Shown here piece by piece: positions 3,996-22,997 of a stretch of DNA of 64,000 bases. The notes under the pieces were generated by a model, which searched no databases, was not told where the DNA came from, and saw only the letters and a list, made by a program, of their open reading frames with translations. How positions within the stretch are numbered: position 1 is the first letter of the stretch; every line of letters begins with the position of its first letter. Position numbers and translations under genes: made by a program. The stretch spans positions 17,501 through 81,500 of the forward strand of contig CAYGFH010000003.1 in the NCBI GenBank assembly GCA_964349125.1, in the 5' to 3' direction. This DNA is from an uncultured Gammaproteobacteria bacterium. Its GTDB lineage: Bacteria > Patescibacteriota > Microgenomatia > UBA10105 > UBA927.

Positions 3996-4977
3996 TTTTG
4001 TCTCATCACTATCTGCAATTTTCGTTTCACTCGTGCTTTCCGGCACAGTGTATGCGGCCGTACCTAATCTGAGTATCAGGTTGCAGCAACCGAAAACACC
4101 AACGAATATTTCGGACCTCAAAATCACAGTGGTCACATTGGACCGGTTAGACAGAAATGTAACAGTAAAGTGCTATAAAAAGGGCCCATCAGACGGTTCG
4201 TTCAGCCAATTTGGATCCGATATGGTGGTTATTCCCGGTGGAAACAGTGTTACCTGTGATACAAATTCGGGCATCATGAATACGAACGGTACATACGAGT
4301 TTCAGGCCACTGCACAGGCAGATGCCGATCTGGAAACCAGCCCCATTGTCTCCGTGTCTTACAACACGAGCGGCCCGGGGACACCAGTTAATTACGGCAA
4401 AGAGCGGATGAATGTGTGTGACTATAAAATCAAATTCAGAACCGCTGATGATTCTGGGAAAACAGTAAAAGTAGAAGTATACCGCTCTGAGAACACATCA
4501 TTTGACCTGAATAACGGCTCCCGGGTGGACACCATTGTGATCGGTTCGAGCACCGATGGGCAATCCGTCACCACACCACCGCAGTGCGATAAAGACTACT
4601 ACTTTGCGGTGCGCGCTTTTGATACAAATGGAAACGGATCGGGCGCGGTGGGAGATAGTGTCATAAAAACAACCACTACGACCACAACCACCTCTACAAC
4701 AACGGGCGCAGCGTCAGGTGCTTCCGGAACATCAGGTGGCGCTTTGGCTTCCGGCAGTTCAGGAAACGTGCTCGGACGCCAAACTGAAGTGGATGCTGAC
4801 ACAACAGGCAGTGAAGGCGAAGTAAAAGGAGATGCGACTCCAAGCGCAACGCCAACGGCTGAAGTTGCCGAATCTGAAGAAAAGCCGCCATACGCAAAAA
4901 CTATAGCAATTGTTGCAGGCATTATCCTATTTGGTATATTGGCATTTCTGTTTCGAAAAAAGCCAACCGTACAGTAA
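3988..4977 (+). CDS. Secreted surface protein with two Fn3/Ig-like domains, a Thr-rich linker, and a C-terminal YAKT motif followed by a TM helix and basic tail. It is a putative sortase substrate.
   Basis: The N-terminal signal peptide ends in VYA-AVP. There is a TTTTTTTSTTTGAASGASG linker. The C-terminus is PPYAKTIAIVAGIILFGILAFLF-RKKPTVQ. The start overlaps the upstream stop by 8 nt. Confidence 0.5.
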   Translation: MRNFVSSLSAIFVSLVLSGTVYAAVPNLSIRLQQPKTPTNISDLKITVVTLDRLDRNVTVKCYKKGPSDGSFSQFGSDMVVIPGGNSVTCDTNSGIMNTNGTYEFQATAQADADLETSPIVSVSYNTSGPGTPVNYGKERMNVCDYKIKFRTADDSGKTVKVEVYRSENTSFDLNNGSRVDTIVIGSSTDGQSVTTPPQCDKDYYFAVRAFDTNGNGSGAVGDSVIKTTTTTTTTSTTTGAASGASGTSGGALASGSSGNVLGRQTEVDADTTGSEGEVKGDATPSATPTAEVAESEEKPPYAKTIAIVAGIILFGILAFLFRKKPTVQ

Positions 4978-4982
4978 AAACT

Positions 4983-5597
4983 GTGAAGGTTTCTTCTATG
5001 CGCACTGCCCGTATGTTTATAGCTGTCGGTTTTGTAGTATCTGCACTCTCTCTTGGTATCTTGCTACTCACGTTTTGGCCTGTCTTGAAGGTTGAATTCG
5101 GATATGTAGCCAAGCAGGCCGGGATCCAGTTATCGATAACCAAACCACCCAAAGACATTGTCCCTATAGATCCTGATTTTGGGATCGTTATTCCAAAGCT
5201 TGGCGCCAATGCCAAAATTATCCCAGACGTGAACCCTTATTCCGAATCAGCCTATCAGAGGGCACTCTCAAAGGGCGTAGCACATGCCAGAGGGACCGTC
5301 TATCCTGGAGATGTGGGAAATGTATTTTTATTTGCGCATTCATCGGTTGATTTTTATGAGGCGCTCCGGTTTAATTCTGTGTTTTATCTTATCTCAAAGC
5401 TAGAGAAAGGAGATGAAGTAATTCTTTATCATAACTCCCATAAATTTGTTTACATAGTAACCGAAAAACGTATAGTTTCATCGACCGCAGTCGAGTATTT
5501 ATCGCGCGAAACTAAAAACAAGCTGCTTACTATGATGACGTGCTGGCCACCCGGTACAACCCTGAAACGATTGGTTGTACAGGCTGAGCTTCGATAG
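4983..5597 (+). CDS. Sortase family transpeptidase
   Basis: An N-terminal TM anchor is present. The catalytic His sits in VFLFAHSS. The TLxTC-type active-site motif LLTMMTCWPPG is followed by a conserved Arg (KRLVVQ). Confidence 0.75.
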   Translation: MKVSSMRTARMFIAVGFVVSALSLGILLLTFWPVLKVEFGYVAKQAGIQLSITKPPKDIVPIDPDFGIVIPKLGANAKIIPDVNPYSESAYQRALSKGVAHARGTVYPGDVGNVFLFAHSSVDFYEALRFNSVFYLISKLEKGDEVILYHNSHKFVYIVTEKRIVSSTAVEYLSRETKNKLLTMMTCWPPGTTLKRLVVQAELR

Positions 5598-5787: not shown

Positions 5788-6456
5788 ATGAACAAAACTA
5801 ATCTGAAAATCTCAGCCTTGATTGGAGCTATCTTGGCGGTCGCGACTATGGTTTCGACAAACACACCAGCTCAAGTTGCTGCAGCAGTTGATAAAATTCT
5901 TTGGTGTCATTGTGAACCAAATGGTAATTGTCAAACGCTTGAACTTCCCTCCGCAGCATTGCAGAATGCCGGACATATGGATGCAAGTGGGAATCCACTT
6001 CATGCAGGTGATTCAGCTGGCTCATGCCCGGATATTTCTCCAACTGTGACACCTACCGTGACACCAAGCGTGACGCCTTCTGCTACACCAAGTGTCACAC
6101 CATCACCGACACCGGTCGATGAATGTGATAGTGAAAAGGAATGCGAACCAACACCTACTGTGACTCCAACAGTGACGCCGGTTCCTACAACTCCTCCGAA
6201 TACCGGAGGACCGGGAGATGGTAAATCAGATGGAAGATCTGACGGCCGATCAAGTTGCCCAGAATGTACACAGGCGCCAATTGGTGGCGGTCAAGTACTC
6301 GGAGCATCAACAGAGGGTCAGGTCTTGGGTGCATCAACTGACTATGCCAAAACAGGTGGCACAGTGAATATGCTCATGAACCTACTCGGTTCAGTCGGAG
6401 CATTTTCAACTGCATCAGGTATCGCAATGATTCTAAAGAAAAAAAATCAAATCTAA
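5788..6456 (+). CDS. Secreted Cys-rich surface protein with a Pro/Thr-rich stalk and a C-terminal YAKTGG motif followed by a TM helix and KKK tail. It is a putative sortase substrate.
   Basis: A signal peptide is present. The stalk contains (TPTVTPSVTPSATPSVTPSPTP) repeats. The C-terminus is DYAKTGGTVNMLMNLLGSVGAFSTASGIAMIL-KKKNQI. Confidence 0.5.
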   Translation: MNKTNLKISALIGAILAVATMVSTNTPAQVAAAVDKILWCHCEPNGNCQTLELPSAALQNAGHMDASGNPLHAGDSAGSCPDISPTVTPTVTPSVTPSATPSVTPSPTPVDECDSEKECEPTPTVTPTVTPVPTTPPNTGGPGDGKSDGRSDGRSSCPECTQAPIGGGQVLGASTEGQVLGASTDYAKTGGTVNMLMNLLGSVGAFSTASGIAMILKKKNQI

Positions 6457-16022: not shown

Positions 16023-18609
16023 GAGTGGGTGATGCGTACGGTGTATTTACACCAATATGCCGTTCAGCGTCTGCGGTCTTACCTGCTTCATCAGTAACCT
16101 TTGCCCGAATAACGTGTGATCCGTTGGGTATGTTGAGGGTCTCTGTGAATTTTGCATCGGAGCGCTCTTTTACCTTTGTCCCATCGACAAACAGTTCAAC
16201 TTTGGATATAGAACGCATACTTGATGCTTCTATTTTGAACGTCACATCGTTGGAATTCACCTGTGCTCTCTCATCAGGCTCACGAAATGCGATATTTATT
16301 TCTTCTCCTCCCGCGTATGTTTCCTTTGGCGGATGATATTTACTGTCTCCCTGTGTGGCTATCCACGCGTCGATACCTTCCTGCCATCGGTTTTTGTTAT
16401 CGCCTGATACGGGATCGCTTTCTGTGAATACAATAAACTTTTTGAGATCATACTCACCTTTGTTAATCTCCACAGAATTTGCAAGTTTATTATTTTCCTT
16501 CCGGGAAACTTTTATGGTCTGATAAATGGGGGATGCATTGGTCGGTTCGGTTCCCCTAATAAATCTCTCTTTCCGAGTCGGACTTCCTTCCACCGGTTGC
16601 CCGCCGCTTAACGCATCGATATCCATTTCCAATATCGAATCAGGTCGTACAAACGGTTCATCGGATTTACCTTTGAGTGCCTCCTGAATAATACGATTCC
16701 ATATGGGAGCCGCGCCTGTTATACCTGACGCAAGTGTCTGGCTCATGGGAGAATTGTCATTATTGCCAACCCAGGCACCCACCACAACAGACGGTGTGTA
16801 CCCGATGGTCCAGTTATCTCGTTTATCATCGGTGGTACCTGTTTTTACCCCTACGGATTTACCCGGAATAACAAGGTATGATTTTGGTCCGAATACCTCT
16901 TTGCGTGCATCGTTGTCAGACAACATATCATTGATAAGATACGCAATGTCATCAGCCATGACTGACCGAAGGGGAGGCGCTTTGTACTGATAGAGCACGG
17001 CGCCCTTGGAATCCTCTACCTTTAATATCGACACCGGGTCTATTCGTTTTCCTTCTGTGGCAAACACTCCAAATGCACTCGTCAAATCAAGAAGGGTAAC
17101 CTCACCGCCACCCAGCGTGAGTGACAATCCTATGCGTTTGAGATTTTCATCAGTGGGCTCAAGTGTTGGCAGCCCCATATCGTACGCGAGGCGAAGCACA
17201 TCTTTGACTCCAACCAGCGCGCTGAGCTTTACCGCCACCGTGTTTATGGAGTTACCCAGTGCATAGCGAAGTGTCACGGGCCCCATAAATTTGCCGTTAT
17301 AATTTTTTGGATTATATTCTGGCTTCTTGGGGTCACCTGACGGATATTTTGTATCCACATCCATAAGCAGGGAAGCCGCTGTGTAGCCTTTCTTGAGAGC
17401 TGCTGCGTAGGTGATCGGTTTGATTGTTGATCCAGGTTGCCGAAGTCCTTGTGTGACAACATTAAATTTAAATCCGCTGCTATCGGTCGCACTGTAATCC
17501 TTAGAACCCACCATAGCGAGTATCTCGCCGGTTCTTGGGTCCAAGACCACGGCAGCGCCATTTGATACCTTAAGATTTTTGGCTTTCGTTACCTCTTCCT
17601 TTACGATGCCTTGGGATTTTTCCTGCAGCTTCCAATCCAATGTCGTGGTAACTCTGAGGCCACCACCTTCAACTTTACTCGCACCGAATTTTTCGACCAG
17701 CTGTTCCTTGATGTACGCGATAAAATGAGGAGCCTTGAGACTGTCTGAATCTTCCGCAAATTTAATAGTTTCCAGTTGTTTTTTTGCATCGGCTTCCTGT
17801 GTCGGGGTGATATATCCGTCTTCACGCATACGGCGAAGTACCTGCTCCGTGCGCCACACGTACGCTTTGGGGACACCGCTGAACGGTGAATACTGAGAAG
17901 GGGATTGCGGTAATCCAGCGAGGATCGCGCTTTCAACCAATCCTAAACCTTTTACCGGTTTATTAAAATAATACTGTGATGCTGATTCGACGCCTACTGC
18001 AGTACCGCCGTATGGAGCTTCATTGAGATACATGAGGAGAATATCATCTTTCTTATACTTACGCTCTATCTGGATAGAGAGTATAGCTTCCTTTATCTTT
18101 CGCGGCAGTGACCGTTCGTTAGTTAACAGTACATTTTTTACCAGCTGTTGCGTGAGAGTGGATCCTCCCTGGCAGCGGTGCAGTACCACACATGCCAATG
18201 CTCCTCGCGTGATTCCTGCGATGGAAAATCCCTGGTGTTTGTAGAAATCCTTATCCTCGACTGCAATAGTGCCTAGTTTTAGATAATTTGGAATATCCTC
18301 ATACTTCACCGGCAATCTATTTTGATCCTGATAAATGTCGTAAAGTGTTTCGCCATTTCTATCCAATATTACTGTAGATAATCCGTCCGTTCGGCGAACT
18401 TTATCCGGTCTGGGCAGATCTTTCGCATACCAGGCAAACAGTATTCCAACGCCCAGCATACCGACAACGAGTGCTCCGAACGCTACAACGGCAATGGTTG
18501 CCCACGTAGCGGTTTTGATTTTGTGGTACCCAATTACTTTTTGTAATTGCCGTTTATTGAAGACATCGAGCATATAGATTATTGTAGGCCGATTTGACCG
18601 ATTTGACAA
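15994..18609 (-). CDS. Class A penicillin-binding protein (PBP1A-type transglycosylase/transpeptidase) with a C-terminal Ig-like extension and a Pro/Thr tail
   Basis: It has an N-terminal TM helix. The GT51 motifs are EDKDFYKHQGFS, GGSTLTQQLVKN and RKIKEAILSIQIERKY. The transpeptidase motifs are STIKP, SxN and KTGT. The C-terminus is PYASPTPTETPSPTP. Confidence 0.85.
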   Translation of the reverse strand: MSNRSNRPTIIYMLDVFNKRQLQKVIGYHKIKTATWATIAVVAFGALVVGMLGVGILFAWYAKDLPRPDKVRRTDGLSTVILDRNGETLYDIYQDQNRLPVKYEDIPNYLKLGTIAVEDKDFYKHQGFSIAGITRGALACVVLHRCQGGSTLTQQLVKNVLLTNERSLPRKIKEAILSIQIERKYKKDDILLMYLNEAPYGGTAVGVESASQYYFNKPVKGLGLVESAILAGLPQSPSQYSPFSGVPKAYVWRTEQVLRRMREDGYITPTQEADAKKQLETIKFAEDSDSLKAPHFIAYIKEQLVEKFGASKVEGGGLRVTTTLDWKLQEKSQGIVKEEVTKAKNLKVSNGAAVVLDPRTGEILAMVGSKDYSATDSSGFKFNVVTQGLRQPGSTIKPITYAAALKKGYTAASLLMDVDTKYPSGDPKKPEYNPKNYNGKFMGPVTLRYALGNSINTVAVKLSALVGVKDVLRLAYDMGLPTLEPTDENLKRIGLSLTLGGGEVTLLDLTSAFGVFATEGKRIDPVSILKVEDSKGAVLYQYKAPPLRSVMADDIAYLINDMLSDNDARKEVFGPKSYLVIPGKSVGVKTGTTDDKRDNWTIGYTPSVVVGAWVGNNDNSPMSQTLASGITGAAPIWNRIIQEALKGKSDEPFVRPDSILEMDIDALSGGQPVEGSPTRKERFIRGTEPTNASPIYQTIKVSRKENNKLANSVEINKGEYDLKKFIVFTESDPVSGDNKNRWQEGIDAWIATQGDSKYHPPKETYAGGEEINIAFREPDERAQVNSNDVTFKIEASSMRSISKVELFVDGTKVKERSDAKFTETLNIPNGSHVIRAKVTDEAGKTADAERHIGVNTPYASPTPTETPSPTP

Positions 18610-18851
18610 CCTTATGATATGATCCTTTATACAAGTTAATAGAAATGCATTGATGGAGATTCAAGTAGACTGTATACAGTGACACATGAGAGAGCAGGCG
18701 GTTGGTGCAAGACCTGACGAATGTATACGGATCGAAATACCCTCCTGAGCATCCCGACGAACAAACACGAGTAGTCGAGGACGGGTATGCCCGTAACAGC
18801 ACTATACTGTGTTGCCTTTTGCAAAGCAGTGAATGAAGGCTATGGATCAAT

Positions 18852-18877
18852 AACCCGCCTCCGGCCGGGTTTTTTTG
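18852..18877 (+). terminator. Intrinsic terminator-like hairpin (CCCGCC-TCC-GGCCGGG) followed by T7
   Basis: A GC-rich hairpin at 18852-18869 is followed by TTTTTTT at 18870-18876. It is on the plus strand although no plus-strand CDS ends here, which implies an untranslated plus-strand transcript. Confidence 0.5.
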
Positions 18878-18920
18878 TACATAGCGAAGTAAGGTGGTAC
18901 CGTCCTCTTTTATAAGAGAA

Positions 18921-18965
18921 CCCTTATATTCACCCCGTTTTGGGGTGTGTATAAGGGTTTTTTTA
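18921..18965 (+). terminator. Second compound hairpin plus U-run, 16 nt upstream of the RBS of the PRTase-like gene. It looks like an attenuator or expression platform.
   Basis: CCCTTATA...ACCCCG-TTTT-GGGGTG...TATAAGGG is followed by TTTTTTTT at 18958-18965. GGAGG at 18972-18976 and the ATG at 18981 follow. Confidence 0.45.
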
Positions 18966-18980
18966 TTATTTGGAGGATAT

Positions 18981-20036
18981 ATGAATACTATTTTTTGGAT
19001 GACAGATGAATTGTTTGCCAAATCCAGGGCAGAAGATTGGAATGCGGTAAAAAAGGCAAGTGAGGAGTTGATTTCTCTGATAGGGAATGAACGTTTCTCT
19101 CACACTATAATTTCGCCTGATAGCTGTATAGGACCGCTTGTACGATCACTTGCAGGTCATCAGTTTAGTGCTGTCGTTGATTTGACTGACAACGGATGGT
19201 TATCTCAGGGGCTTGAGAGTGCACTCTCGCGCGGTACGCCGATTATAACTGATCTCCATATCAGCCGCGTGAGAGAGATCAGTGATCCAACACTCCCCAC
19301 GTCGGGGCATATAGTTCGCACACCACTTGAAGATGTCGTGAGCCTCAGGCAGACTGTTGATTTTTCCCGATCGCTGATACTTGACGATGTATCATTTAGC
19401 GGCAAGAGCAGTGAGTTAGTTATGAGAATATTGGGTCTGGATCCGAGACACACAACCCACGGCTTTCTGATAACAAATACAGGAGACTTGGGGCCTAAAA
19501 CAGACGGAGCGTGGTCCCGGCTGTCAAAAGAAGGCGCAAGGATTCATACTGGGGCGGTCATAAATACTTCGGAAGGTGACGACGGATGGCACATCAAGGA
19601 TTTTGTCCGACATGAACATTTGGATCGTGCTCTCGGGCTTATTCCGGTTATCCACGAACTTTTCAAAGATTCGCGTGGAAATAGAGATATGCTCCAGATG
19701 CTTTTTTCGATGGATTGTACCCGATCCTTATTGTTTCCACACGCGGTTTCTGGTGGAGCCCTCGCAGGGGTGGACGAAGCACAATTTATACGTACAGCGC
19801 AGTTTAGAGGTGAGGGAATGCATACAACAAATCCGAACCTGCTTACATCACCTGCGTTCCTGGAACATATATCGACCGATTCATTCGCGCGACATATCAA
19901 TGAGGTCAGCGATATACTGAATGGCATACAGCAGCTGACAAATCTTCCGGAGGGTAACCGTGATTCGATCGAGGGAATACGTCGTATCGTGGAATCAGAA
20001 CTTCATCAGTCTTCACCAGAAAGAAGGCAACTATGA
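18981..20036 (+). CDS. Phosphoribosyltransferase-like (PRTase-fold) protein with N- and C-terminal extensions
   Basis: LILDDVSFSGKSS matches the PRPP-binding motif (hydrophobic x4-DD-V-x-[ST]-G-x-[ST]) of type I PRTases. The start is set at the ATG at 18981 with a GGAGG SD. The six-frame ORF start at 18894 is an upstream extension that spans the terminators. At 352 aa it is much longer than a canonical PRTase. Confidence 0.4.
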   Translation: MNTIFWMTDELFAKSRAEDWNAVKKASEELISLIGNERFSHTIISPDSCIGPLVRSLAGHQFSAVVDLTDNGWLSQGLESALSRGTPIITDLHISRVREISDPTLPTSGHIVRTPLEDVVSLRQTVDFSRSLILDDVSFSGKSSELVMRILGLDPRHTTHGFLITNTGDLGPKTDGAWSRLSKEGARIHTGAVINTSEGDDGWHIKDFVRHEHLDRALGLIPVIHELFKDSRGNRDMLQMLFSMDCTRSLLFPHAVSGGALAGVDEAQFIRTAQFRGEGMHTTNPNLLTSPAFLEHISTDSFARHINEVSDILNGIQQLTNLPEGNRDSIEGIRRIVESELHQSSPERRQL

Positions 20037-20884
20037 ACCCTGAATTGATTCATATTCCGGAACAGCAGCGTCACAAGCCGCAGATCTTTCTTTGTGATTT
20101 TGATATGACACTTGCGCATGTATATGCGTTTTCGCCGACATGGCAAACACATGTGCCGGTACTGGACCATGAGTTGGTGAGTATGTTGACGGTGCCTGAC
20201 CAATTACTCTGTATCGCGACAGCCAGAGGAGCCAGGGAACCTGTCTCATGGGTAATCGGTCACAGACTTCTTGATCCGAAGGTCCCACTCGTCGTAGAAA
20301 ACGGCGCAGCGCTCTTGTGGAACAGAACTGCTCTATCAAAGCCACCTGCTATTGAACTGCTTATCACTGACCAAGAAGCAACGTTGATTGAGCAGCTAGG
20401 GCGCGATATACAATCAGTGATCCACACCATACCCGCAGTGTCAAAGGATCATGCGGTGCTTATGCGTCCGAATAGGGTAGCATCCATTGAGCTTCGCGCC
20501 GAACACAAAAATACGCACCACGGAACTCCCCAAGAGTACGGGAATATATCCGATTTTCTGCTGACACAGTTCCCGGAAATCGAAACACTGTGCACCATCT
20601 CGACGACAGGAAGTTCGCTGACCATAGAACCAAAGTCGGCAGACAAGAAAGCCGGGATACTTGCTGCGATGAAGCGGGCACATATTGATACAGCAGTAGT
20701 ATTTCCTATCGCTCTTGGAGATAACAGGAATGATACCCCACTGTTTACCCTTGCAAGGGAAATGGGCGGAATTGCCATAGGAGTTTCCACGGACGTTGAC
20801 AAAAGCGCGTGTGATCTCGTTTTTGAAGCAGGAGAGGCGACTACAAAACAAATCGTACAACACATTCAATCACTCTGCCTATGA
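20033..20884 (+). CDS. HAD-superfamily phosphatase (IIB-like)
   Basis: Motif I is DxDxT in LCDFDMTLA, and motif IV is GDxxND in LGDNRNDTPLF. It overlaps its neighbours in ATGA fashion, indicating translational coupling. Confidence 0.6.
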   Translation: MNPELIHIPEQQRHKPQIFLCDFDMTLAHVYAFSPTWQTHVPVLDHELVSMLTVPDQLLCIATARGAREPVSWVIGHRLLDPKVPLVVENGAALLWNRTALSKPPAIELLITDQEATLIEQLGRDIQSVIHTIPAVSKDHAVLMRPNRVASIELRAEHKNTHHGTPQEYGNISDFLLTQFPEIETLCTISTTGSSLTIEPKSADKKAGILAAMKRAHIDTAVVFPIALGDNRNDTPLFTLAREMGGIAIGVSTDVDKSACDLVFEAGEATTKQIVQHIQSLCL

Positions 20885-21783
20885 CAACTTTTTTACTGGA
20901 TACAGACATAGGTACAGATGTGGATGATGCACTCGCTCTTTGCTTTATGCTGGAGAAAAAATCGAAACGATTGCTGGGTGTGATCACCACAAATGGGCCG
21001 ACGAAAACTCGTGCACAGATTGCCAAAACTATTCTGGGACTCAAAGGTTTCCTGCGCATACCCGTATTTCGCGGACAATCAACTGCTCGCACGAACGGTA
21101 TTACCCCATTTGTGACCGGTAACGAGTCTATTGGGATTGAGAGTCAGTCGCATGCATTCCCACTGCGATCGATCCTTCCGTTAATACTTTCCGAGCCCGA
21201 TGGTAGCATTGTGTATATTCTGATTGCTCCCGCTTCCACATGTTCAGCGCTACTGGAAATACCTATGATTCGAAAGAAAATAAAATCTGTAGTGATTATG
21301 GGTGGCGTCATCGCATCTGATCCGACAAAACCCAAGCAAGAGCACAATATCGCGGCCGACCCTGCGTCTTTTTCACGAATATGTGCGTTTCGGATACCTG
21401 TTTTTCTCGTTCCGTTGAACCTGACGCTACCGCACGTATTTCCCGAACGTGCGATTGAAGAGATTTCCCGGTCAGGCTTGCCGCTTGCATCAAAGATGCA
21501 TCTTTGGATTAAACTATGGCGCTCATTTACCCTCACGTTTGGTGAGAAAGACCATTGGTTTAAAAATCGCGTCCTCTTGCACGACCCCATCACTTGCATT
21601 GCCGCCATGCGTAAAAGCGCATTTAGGTGGCAGGATATGGCCGTGACAACGACGCAGGAAGGAGAACTAAAGATAGGGAAAGGTGGCACCGTACGAATTG
21701 CCACAGCAATAAAAAGAGGCGAAATTGCCAAACTGATATCACAGGTTGTATCGAGTATAGTTACGCATAAAAATATGGTATAG
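20881..21783 (+). CDS. Inosine-uridine preferring nucleoside hydrolase family protein
   Basis: The N-terminal LLDTDIGTDVDDALALCF carries the DxDxxxDD Ca2+-binding signature of IU-nucleoside hydrolases. Confidence 0.8.
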   Translation: MTTFLLDTDIGTDVDDALALCFMLEKKSKRLLGVITTNGPTKTRAQIAKTILGLKGFLRIPVFRGQSTARTNGITPFVTGNESIGIESQSHAFPLRSILPLILSEPDGSIVYILIAPASTCSALLEIPMIRKKIKSVVIMGGVIASDPTKPKQEHNIAADPASFSRICAFRIPVFLVPLNLTLPHVFPERAIEEISRSGLPLASKMHLWIKLWRSFTLTFGEKDHWFKNRVLLHDPITCIAAMRKSAFRWQDMAVTTTQEGELKIGKGGTVRIATAIKRGEIAKLISQVVSSIVTHKNMV

Positions 21784-21794
21784 TAGGAAGAATT

Positions 21795-22997
21795 ATGGAT
21801 GATATTGAACGATTACTGACACGGGGAGTTGATACGGTTTATCCGACCCGAAAGGCGCTAGAGGAGGTCCTTCGTTCCGGTAAGAAATTGACGCTCTACC
21901 AGGGGTTTGATCCGACAGGCACACAGTTGCACATAGGTCACATGGTTGGATTTCGAAAGCTACGACAATTTCAGGACCTAGGACACCATGTAATTTTCCT
22001 GATAGGGGATGGTACGGGGTTGGCTGGTGATCCATCCGGCAAAATGAAAGCACGTGGACGGTTCATGACCCGAGAGGAATTGCGCGATAATGCGAAAGCG
22101 TACCTGATGCAGGCCGGAAAAATTGTACGATTTGATGGAGAGAATCCTGTTGAAATACGATATAACGGGGATTGGCTCACAAAGCTGCAACTTCAGGATA
22201 TCCTCGATCTTGCAGGACATTTTACGGTGCAGCAGATGATCGAACGGGATATGTATCAGGTTCGTCTCAAGGCGAATGAACCCATTAACCTTCGCGAATT
22301 TTTATACCCACTACTTCAGGGATACGATTCTGTCGCGATGGATGTGGATTTGGAGCTCGGCGGGAGTGACCAAATGTTTAACATGCTTGCAGGCCGTACG
22401 CTTATGAAAGCGATGAAAGGCAAAGAGAAATTTGTCATGACAGCGCCGTTACTAGCTGATGCGAAGGGAGTAAAGATCGGCAAGTCAGAAGGCAATGTCA
22501 TAGGACTTATAGATGCACCCTCTGATTTCTATGGCAAAATTATGTCTCTCGGCGATGATGCCATCCTACCGTGCTTTACACTACTCACAGATACCGAACC
22601 GGGTGAACTTGATCAAATAAGGACAGCTATTGCCACAGGAACACAAAATCCTATGGTATTTAAAAAACGCCTTGCGTTTGAACTGACAAAAGCCCTCAAT
22701 ACAGAAGCTGATGCGACACAGGCCCAACTCGATTTTGAAACCAGGTTTCAAAAAGGTGATGCGGCTGGAAGTAACATACCGGAAATTGCATTGTCGACGC
22801 TTCCTTTGGATGGAACTCTTATTGACTACCTGGTTGCCGTACAATTCGCCAAAAGTAATTCTGACGCGAGACGTCTAGTGGAACAAAACGCTGTTAAGTA
22901 CAATGATACAGTCATGCATAATCCCAAAGTGCCTATGCATATAAAACCCGGTGATATATTCCAAGCCGGGAGAAAAGCTGTTAAGATAACCGCATAA
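21795..22997 (+). CDS. tyrS: Tyrosyl-tRNA synthetase
   Basis: YQGFDPTGTQLHIGHMVGF is the HIGH motif, KIGKSEGN is the KMSKS-like motif, and a C-terminal S4-like domain is present. Confidence 0.85.
   Translation: MDDIERLLTRGVDTVYPTRKALEEVLRSGKKLTLYQGFDPTGTQLHIGHMVGFRKLRQFQDLGHHVIFLIGDGTGLAGDPSGKMKARGRFMTREELRDNAKAYLMQAGKIVRFDGENPVEIRYNGDWLTKLQLQDILDLAGHFTVQQMIERDMYQVRLKANEPINLREFLYPLLQGYDSVAMDVDLELGGSDQMFNMLAGRTLMKAMKGKEKFVMTAPLLADAKGVKIGKSEGNVIGLIDAPSDFYGKIMSLGDDAILPCFTLLTDTEPGELDQIRTAIATGTQNPMVFKKRLAFELTKALNTEADATQAQLDFETRFQKGDAAGSNIPEIALSTLPLDGTLIDYLVAVQFAKSNSDARRLVEQNAVKYNDTVMHNPKVPMHIKPGDIFQAGRKAVKITA

Follow-up and report, generated by a model that had tools for sequence, protein, structure and literature searches.

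What RNA is made from the gap between a divergent PBP1A gene and a tightly packed plus-strand operon, and which signal would that RNA read? The gap lies in a stretch of 64,000 nucleotides, here called the window, and carries a tandem TTGAC repeat, a palindrome and two hairpins that are each followed by a run of T. A first-pass annotation of the locus proposed either a small RNA or a riboswitch leader, the latter sensing a purine, a nucleoside or a PRPP-type ligand ahead of a nucleoside-salvage operon. The present analysis points to a different signal. Plus-strand positions 18641 to 18964 very probably encode a class I (transcriptional) T-box riboswitch, predicted to be specific for tRNA-Tyr, and we place the probability of this reading at about 0.92. 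It rests on a family match, the architecture of the RNA, a conserved specifier, covariation, mutually exclusive folds and gene content, and the binding of tRNA, pausing and control of read-through are predicted functions of this leader.

The gap is non-coding, as had been proposed. Its sole long open reading frame, of 155 aa on the minus strand (18554-19021), does not stay open in the closest relatives, L020 and L001, where several stops interrupt it; it is therefore not a gene. The folding z-score of the gap is -4.55 and, with the T-box match and the covariation described below, sets the region apart from chance.

Identity of the leader RNA

Rfam searches connect the gap to a single RNA family. 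The T-box leader model RF00230 matches positions 18641-18928 on the plus strand with 80.1 bits (E = 9.8e-18) over its full length (1-219), and this is the sole RNA match at E <= 0.001 in the 64-kb window. The terminator adds the remainder up to 18964, giving a leader of the transcription-attenuation class. Because the Rfam gathering cut-off for RF00230 is 93 bits, a default scan misses this leader; at the gathering threshold the whole 64-kb window returned no matches, and the T-box surfaced only with E-value reporting. The sub-threshold score coincides with two long insertions that the RF00230 model leaves unmatched, the linker and Stem III, and these may contribute to the shortfall. Other weak Rfam matches in the gap (a PyrR site, RybB, microRNAs and the rnk leader, at E = 0.36-4.6) were rejected as generic hairpin matches. 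A search of the 64-kb window for tRNA and tmRNA genes found none, so the cognate tRNA-Tyr gene lies outside it.

Comparison with related loci broadens this picture. Fourteen distinct leaders were compared, namely that of the window and 13 others from metagenome-assembled genomes, two of the 13 carrying a Microgenomates or Patescibacteria group label. Rfam detects a T-box at the same position in L001, L002, L003, L005-L010 and L014, with scores of 72.6-110.3 bits; L002 (110.3) and L007 (98.2) exceed the 93-bit cut-off, the eight others score 72.6-90, and of the 12 leaders scanned, 10 do not reach that cut-off. L020, L021 and L024 carry the T-box motif as well. Gene order is conserved as PBP1A (divergent), leader, gene 1, variable cargo, tyrS and recG, with tyrS found in every locus long enough to show it. 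The genomes holding gene-1 loci are labelled Microgenomates group, Patescibacteria group, uncultured bacterium and, in one probably mislabelled case, "Gammaproteobacteria". The first-pass annotation had recommended an Rfam scan and a search for conservation and covariation in relatives; the former yields the T-box when run in E-value mode, and the latter finds the leader kept, with covariation, in 13 other leaders.

Promoters on either side

The TTGAC repeat noted earlier is present as described, overlapping a TTGACA. Its 9-nt unit, CGATTTGAC, occurs twice in tandem at 18590-18607 on the plus strand and supplies two -35-like hexamers, TTGACC (18594-99) and TTGACA (18603-08). Going by their sequence, these repeats would be promoter -35 elements located upstream of the RNA. 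The probable leader promoter extends over 18594-18623 on the plus strand, with TTGACC as its -35, an 18-nt spacer and the extended -10 element TGATATGAT, in which TATGAT occupies 18618-23. A consensus scan gives this site 10 of 12 consensus matches and a TG upstream of the -10, and transcription would start near 18630. Counterpart promoters are found in L010 (12 of 12 matches) and L009. The tandem repeat is conserved in L020 and L001, and in more distant relatives one TTGACA or TTGCTA stands in its place, with about 8 extra spacer bases; duplication of the -35 may therefore restore promoter spacing.

The bases of the tandem repeat also hold the -35 of a divergent, promoter-like site for PBP1A (18581-18609, minus strand), made up of TTGTCA at 18609-04 and the -10 TACAAT at 18586-81. 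At this -10, the plus-strand sequence ATTGTA is invariant in six relatives. The PBP1A ATG, at 18573, lies so close to the -10 site that the PBP1A mRNA is probably leaderless. Gene callers place the PBP1A start at 859 aa in L018 and at 871 aa in L019.

The antiterminator and the terminator

The 3' part of the leader contains two overlapping folds. The antiterminator occupies 18891-18925 on the plus strand, where helix A1 pairs AAGG (18891-94) with CCUU (18922-25) and helix A2 pairs 18902-09 with 18914-21. The T-box family is defined by a 7-nt UGGN-ACC bulge between A1 and A2, with UGGN abutting A1 (PMC7583486), and the leader carries UGGUACC at 18895-18901, right after AAGG. UGGU is present in 14 of 14 leaders. 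The last U, which is the N of UGGN, is complementary to the discriminator base A73 of the tRNA-Tyr(GUA) genes of relatives L009-L012, as read from their sequences.

The second fold is an intrinsic terminator at 18920-18964 on the plus strand, with a hairpin at 18920-58, a U7 tract at 18958-64 and a predicted energy of -33.9 kcal/mol. Since the 3' strands of the antiterminator (18914-25) overlap the 5' strand of the terminator (18920-28), the two structures are mutually exclusive. Every leader has its own terminator overlapping the antiterminator, at -20 to -41 kcal/mol, with unrelated stem sequences. The earlier proposal of a cis-acting leader of the riboswitch class whose last hairpin is the expression-platform terminator of the operon is upheld. 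Reading the sequence further, the Shine-Dalgarno (SD) element GGAGG (18972-76) and the ATG of gene 1 (18981-83), together spanning 18972-18983 on the plus strand, both lie outside the terminator; because the SD is outside the switch, control by the leader would be transcriptional. From the end of the second U tract it is 7 nt to the SD and 16 nt to the ATG, which corrects the earlier placement of the terminator 16 nt before the SD.

One position of the antiterminator departs from the canonical form. A G·U wobble at the base of A2 acts as a steric sensor of the aminoacyl group and is described as critical (PMC7583486); here the basal pair is G18902-C18921. All 14 leaders have G-C at this place, 12 of them determined by script and two (L003 and L014) read from the sequence.

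Stem III and its inner hairpin

The first of the two hairpins raises the most serious competing explanation. Both hairpins with their T7 runs exist on the plus strand, as had been reported; they do not stand as independent terminators, since the first belongs to Stem III. This stem is enlarged and spans 18839-18885 on the plus strand, with an outer helix formed by 18839-44 and 18880-85 and an interior that appears as an insertion in the Rfam alignment. The outer helix, predicted in 12 of the 14 leaders, ends 5 nt ahead of helix A1. Both layers, outer and inner, are independently predicted in those 12, and the inner hairpin alone in L003 and L006. T-box leaders are defined to have purine strings, 5'-RRRxG ... 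AA-3', around Stem III (PMC7583486), and the window leader has GAAGG (18835-39) before it and G-AA-G (18886-89) after it. The two A's on the 3' side are invariant (alignment positions A258 and A259).

Within this stem, a hairpin at 18852-71 (plus strand, -9.6 kcal/mol) is followed by a U7 run at 18870-76. A consensus scan finds this site, but a single such site in 1.5 kb is at the shuffle level (mean 1.1) and by itself does not exceed chance. Conservation is more telling: a hairpin of -8 to -14 kcal/mol with a T5-7 run is kept in 14 of 14 leaders, and T5 is invariant in the 13 that were aligned. Five of the six pairs show compensatory changes, and the covariation score of 0.566 compares with 0.198 in shuffles, none of 500 reaching it; slid controls also score much lower. 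Upstream bases able to pair with the U-run are not conserved, as L001 shows, which suggests that the U-run itself is under selection. For the same reason, a longer A-U helix that would take up the U-run was rejected, as the upstream A's are not conserved in L001. A role as a minus-strand terminator was rejected as well, given that PBP1A, the sole neighbouring gene on that strand, is transcribed away from the site and the minus strand lacks a proper T-run.

The likeliest roles for the element at 18852-76 are pausing, which is favoured, and leaky termination. Alternatively, it could be a true intrinsic terminator, so that the leader holds two sequential stops, the first constitutive or otherwise controlled. 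Such a stop would leave a stable transcript of about 245 nt that includes Stems I and II, for example a tRNA-Tyr-binding decoy, and would fit the small-RNA idea. The U tract abutting its stem, the call by the consensus scan, the hairpin and T-run kept across all leaders and the unconserved pairing partners of the U-run all agree with this explanation, as do insertions of 45-140 nt tolerated right after the U-run in L009 and L014. Against it, the hairpin is a short one, 8 bp and bulged, and sits within the outer Stem III helix, which is predicted in 12 of 14 leaders and abuts A1, and an efficient early stop would leave the conserved sensing module downstream pointless. A passage of PMC6197855, citing Grundy and Henkin 2004, describes Stem III of glyQS as a pause site. 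Moreover, no conserved alternative pairing is available to regulate the hairpin: a candidate, base pairing of its 5' strand (GGCGGUU) to the distal loop of Stem I (AACCCGCC), is imperfect and, examined by eye, fails in L003 and L009. We therefore consider a true first terminator unlikely, while giving it real weight. A free-standing small RNA, as proposed in the first-pass annotation, is not supported, although a short transcript may end at the first hairpin.

Stem I, the specifier and the linker

Turning to the 5' half of the T-box leader, alignment to the Rfam consensus places Stem I at 18647-18750 on the plus strand. The base of the stem is paired GC/GC, and a K-turn (18649-54 and 18746-48, UGA.../...UGA) flanks a GGAG/CUCC helix. 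The specifier loop has AGUA on its 5' side (18664-67) and GAAAUACC on its 3' side (18734-41, read as GAA-A-UAC-C); together with the K-turn at the base of the stem, this gives an S-turn and a codon on the 3' side in the register GAA-N-codon-N. Further up, the AG bulge AGAGA lies at 18689-93 and the distal loop CGGUUGGUGCAAGA at 18699-18712. AGAGA and GGUUGGUGCAA (18700-10) align with the consensus AGAGA...GgUUGGUGaaA and are kept in 13 leaders, so the AG-bulge and distal-loop platform is recognisable at the sequence level. Compensatory changes affect 15 of the 20 predicted Stem I pairs across 13 leaders. In relative L024, Stem I is shortened and without the distal platform.

The consensus register identifies the specifier codon as UAC (Tyr) at 18738-18740 on the plus strand. 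UAC is invariant in 14 of 14 leaders, despite gene-1 proteins that are only 36-84% identical to that of the window, and it agrees with the downstream tyrS and with the tRNA-Tyr(GUA) genes of relatives. The base after the codon is canonically a stacking purine, described as functionally critical (PMC7583486). Here it is C18741; 12 of the 14 leaders carry a C there, and the two exceptions are L024 with A and L003 with U.

This missing purine opens the question of whether the specifier lies one base later, as ACC for threonine. With C, A or U after UAC, the shifted frame reads ACC, ACA or ACU, all of them Thr codons. UAC, however, sits exactly in the consensus register, and a codon in the ACC frame would leave no stacking base between itself and the helix. 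The annotated variants of the operon show tyrS and no thrS homologue, and L009-L012 carry a tRNA-Tyr(GUA) gene inside the T-box unit. A threonine specificity is thus very improbable, and UAC is retained as the predicted specifier.

Downstream of Stem I, the Rfam alignment defines Stem II and Stem IIA on the plus strand within 18753-18796. Stem II pairs 18753-58 with 18774-80 and has an S-turn-like loop (GAA...AGUA); Stem IIA pairs 18782-85 with 18790-93 and leads into an F-box-like CCGUAA at 18791-96. The consensus F-box is CCGUUA, and CCCGTAA is invariant in 11 leaders. For Stem IIB, inspection by eye suggests GUAU/AUAC in the window and AGCG/CGCU in L002, and gives no clear pairing in L009 and L010. 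The minimum-free-energy fold contains an extra linker hairpin, ACUGUGUUGC-CUUUU-GCAAAGCAGU, which separates Stem IIA/B from Stem III and lies at 18806-18830 on the plus strand. The palindrome pointed out earlier, TTTGCAAA at 18818-25, is indeed present and forms the tip of this hairpin. A hairpin in the linker position is predicted in 13 of the 14 leaders with differing sequences, and L003 folds otherwise.

The downstream operon

Four plus-strand genes follow the leader in tight succession. The product of gene 1 (18981-20036) has 351 aa and belongs to a rare unnamed family; its N-terminal part is predicted to adopt a type I PRTase fold. Gene 1 overlaps by 4 nt with gene 2 (20033-20884), a HAD-IIB-like hydrolase (PF08282, 28.3 bits; weak TIGR01484), which in turn overlaps by 4 nt with gene 3 (20881-21783), an inosine-uridine-type nucleoside hydrolase (PF01156, 110 bits). 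After 11 nt comes gene 4 (21795-22997), tyrS, the tyrosine-tRNA ligase (TIGR00234, 322.8 bits; PF00579, 215.7 bits), which matches the specifier. The earlier nucleoside-salvage description of the operon overlooked the terminal tyrS. To our knowledge, none of the three genes ahead of tyrS has a link to tyrosine.

Related loci vary in what they place between gene 1 and tyrS. The cargo is a HAD protein and a nucleoside hydrolase in the window, L001, L020 and L009; HAD, nucleoside hydrolase and an M20 peptidase in L022; HAD only in L021; and a SLOG/LDcluster4 protein in L010 and L024. In L009-L012, a tRNA-Tyr(GUA) gene stands between the T-box and the operon, within the same unit.

Searches of Pfam and NCBIfam assign gene 1 itself to no family, and PDB sequences give no significant match. 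Its homologues number 38 among 5.8 billion proteins and 90 cluster representatives among 1.84 billion. An AlphaFold model built from 37 sequences has a pLDDT of 91, and its PDB fold matches align 111-161 residues, none spanning all 351. The best of these matches are catalytic APRT, XPRT and OPRT. A distant homologue at L004 keeps its HAD and nucleoside hydrolase partners and has neither tyrS nor a T-box. The protein seems to belong to a nucleotide or nucleobase module, which in the lineage of the window lies under a Tyr T-box. All T-box loci share synteny, so the linkage between gene 1 and the T-box may be inherited rather than independently selected.

These genes bear directly on the ligand first suggested for the leader. 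A small-molecule riboswitch for a purine, a nucleoside or PRPP would suit the PRTase-fold, HAD phosphatase and nucleoside hydrolase genes that open the operon, as well as a terminator immediately ahead of the first of them. It is contradicted by the absence from the gap of any match to a purine, PRPP, ZTP, preQ1 or other aptamer family in Rfam even at E <= 10, by T-box modules that account for the whole length and by L004, where the gene-1/HAD/nucleoside hydrolase module occurs with no such leader. With the specifier UAC and the bulge UGGU, the T-box would read tRNA-Tyr instead, and a small-molecule ligand is scarcely credible. Equally implausible is a PyrR-like attenuation in which the PRTase-fold product of gene 1 binds its own leader, as the PyrR match lies far under its 54-bit threshold and is made of two generic hairpins, the same bases are explained by the T-box at E = 1e-17, the best fold matches of gene 1 are catalytic enzymes and L004 has the protein without any such leader.

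Proposed mechanism and significance

In the proposed mechanism, transcription would start near 18630 from the extended -10 promoter. Stem I would then bind tRNA-Tyr: its UAC specifier (18738-40) would pair to the GUA anticodon, and the platform made by the AG bulge and the distal loop would stack on the elbow of the tRNA, with assistance from Stem II and Stem IIA/B. The polymerase probably pauses at the U-run after the inner hairpin of Stem III (18852-76), which would allow time for tRNA docking. An uncharged tRNA could pair its 3' ACCA with UGGU (18895-98), stabilising A1 and A2 and blocking the 18920-64 terminator, and the polymerase would proceed into the operon of PRTase-fold, HAD phosphatase, nucleoside hydrolase and tyrS genes. 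With charged tRNA, the terminator would form and transcription would stop 16 nt before the first start codon.

Several observations speak against the T-box reading. The score is 80.1 bits against a cut-off of 93, and two positions described as critical deviate across the clade, namely the base after the codon (C in 12 of 14 leaders) and the pair at the base of A2 (G-C). A terminator-like hairpin with U7 lies upstream of the sensing bulge and, if efficient, would pre-empt the decision. In addition, tyrS is the fourth gene of the operon rather than the first.

On balance, the leader is a sub-threshold, previously unannotated member of the T-box family, with departures that amount to within-family variation and with the remaining defining features in place. 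A bolder proposal is that the clade represents a lineage-specific T-box sub-type, with an obligatory terminator-like checkpoint in Stem III, altered sensors and a tie between tRNA-Tyr charging and functions beyond tyrS; this is speculative and we hold it to be doubtful. If true, the sub-type would also control a PRTase-fold enzyme together with base-releasing enzymes (HAD and nucleoside hydrolase) or a SLOG protein and, in sister genomes, the tRNA-Tyr gene itself. It could then point to a nucleobase pathway linked to tRNA-Tyr, such as the salvage of a modified base, or to autoregulation of ligand synthesis.

A Tyr T-box before a tyrS operon is ordinary biology in itself. More unusual are the lineage, the conservation of a terminator-like Stem III, the changes at the sensor positions and, in relatives, the tRNA-Tyr gene between the T-box and the operon. 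The leader puts T-box control in genomes that bear a Microgenomates or Patescibacteria group label, and a full-text literature search found no paper pairing the T-box with the CPR, Patescibacteria or Microgenomates group names. It also indicates that default Rfam thresholds miss T-boxes in the lineage of the window, and it turns an unannotated gap into a defined regulator. Furthermore, the clade offers natural variants at two positions deemed critical to the mechanism along with a Stem III of terminator geometry, a set that could be used to test steric-sensor and pausing models. Finally, the leader ties a rare unnamed PRTase-fold family to starvation for tyrosine-charged tRNA.

Comparison with known systems

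The Bacillus subtilis tyrS T-box leader, whose specifier is UAC, is the founding member of RF00230. Compared with that leader, partly on the basis of PMC7583486, the window leader is alike in its predicted tRNA-Tyr specificity, its UAC specifier and its predicted control of tyrS. In each, a long Stem I with its K-turn, S-turn, AG bulge and distal loop precedes Stem II and Stem III, and the Stem IIA/B and F-box of the B. subtilis leader have their likely counterparts in the Stem IIA, the candidate IIB pairing and the F-box-like motif of the window leader. Both combine a UGGUACC bulge with a terminator/antiterminator switch. The differences are equally clear. In the window, tyrS stands fourth, behind three unrelated genes, and the leader has an extra linker hairpin and a Stem III of about 47 nt with a conserved hairpin and U-run. 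Its A2 helix has G-C rather than G·U at the base, a C rather than a purine follows the codon, and its score lies under the Rfam cut-off. Unlike B. subtilis, a Firmicute, the host probably belongs to a CPR lineage, judging by synteny with, and identity to, relatives that bear Microgenomates or Patescibacteria group labels.

The glyQS T-box of B. subtilis, with its kinetic model of a Stem III pause, provides a parallel for Stem III. As presented in a passage of PMC6197855, it too has a hairpin just upstream of the antiterminator that is able to hold the polymerase during tRNA docking. Unlike the window leader, glyQS has no Stem II and its Stem III is short. In the window, a longer helix encloses the hairpin, and the U7 tract behind it gives full terminator geometry; here pausing is a prediction.

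A third group, the translational ileS T-boxes of actinobacteria, has a short Stem I and can be likened to relative L024, whose Stem I is without the distal platform. Insertions in Stem III have been noted for this class (PMC7583486), a feature that recalls the enlarged stem described here. Unlike the actinobacterial ileS leaders, the leader in the window combines a full-length Stem I with an SD outside the switch, so that its predicted control is transcriptional.

A tyrosine T-box preceding the gene for its own ligand

In several relatives of the window, the tyrosine T-box leader is followed by a tRNA-Tyr(GUA) gene. At L009 (positions 4828-5379 of that locus), a strong promoter leads into the Tyr T-box and its terminator, then, after about 11 nt, into the tRNA-Tyr(GUA) gene, a homologue of gene 1 and tyrS; L023 is identical in sequence over this stretch. 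L010 (5503-6001) has the same order from the strong promoter through to tyrS, again with about 11 nt between the terminator and the tRNA gene, and its arrangement recurs in L011 and L012. In all five loci, the tRNA gene carries A73 and does not encode CCA. Because the tRNA gene follows the T-box and a search between the two in L009- and L010-type loci found no promoter-like site, the T-box appears, from sequence, to control transcription of tRNA-Tyr, the gene for its own ligand. Separately, the Phe_leader model has a weak match upstream of the T-box locus in L006, at 4352-4467; it scores 50 bits (E = 2.3e-5), short of the model's cut-off of 55.

Gene 1 and its operon partners

The protein family of gene 1 (window 18981-20036, 351 aa) has no name and is very rare: a set of 5.8e9 proteins contains 38 homologues, and one of 1.84e9 contains 90 cluster representatives. 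Structural modeling predicts a type I PRTase fold for its product, and no PDB match covers the entire model. Where the window has a HAD phosphatase and a nucleoside hydrolase (20033-21783), L010 (7056-7580) and L024 (1845-2360) have an SLOG/LDcluster4 protein, which may be a non-orthologous replacement that releases the free base from a nucleotide.

The syntenic relative L001 (CAYSEV010000011.1) shares 88% identity with the window in PBP1A and 70% in gene 1. This MAG is labeled 'uncultured Gammaproteobacteria'; given this synteny and identity, and since other loci sharing the gene order are labeled Microgenomates or Patescibacteria group, that label is probably wrong.

Sequences flanking the leader

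On the minus strand (window 18571-18609), the divergent PBP1A gene has a conserved -10 element, TACAAT, at 18586-81. Just 7 nt or so separate it from the ATG at 18573 downstream, a spacing that suggests a leaderless PBP1A mRNA. The -35 of this promoter-like site overlaps that of the T-box promoter. At the other end of the leader, GUCCUCU (18902-18908), the 5' strand of antiterminator helix A2, is complementary to UGGAGGA in the Shine-Dalgarno region (18971-18977), and the two are paired in an extended fold. Because this is observed only among relatives that are nearly identical, the pairing may be due to chance or be a secondary translational effect.

Variation in leader architecture

Stem III can accommodate extra hairpins formed by insertions of 45-140 nt, as in L014 (~790-945), L009 (~5105-5155) and L005 (~5800-5870); all three leaders retain its outer helix and its inner hairpin with the U-run. 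The L024 leader (~540-780) has a truncated Stem I, with UAC-A carried in a small loop and both the AG bulge and the distal platform absent; it retains Stem IIA, the Stem III hairpin and U-run, the T-box bulge and the terminator. In its truncation, this leader is similar to actinobacterial T-boxes, whose Stem I is short.
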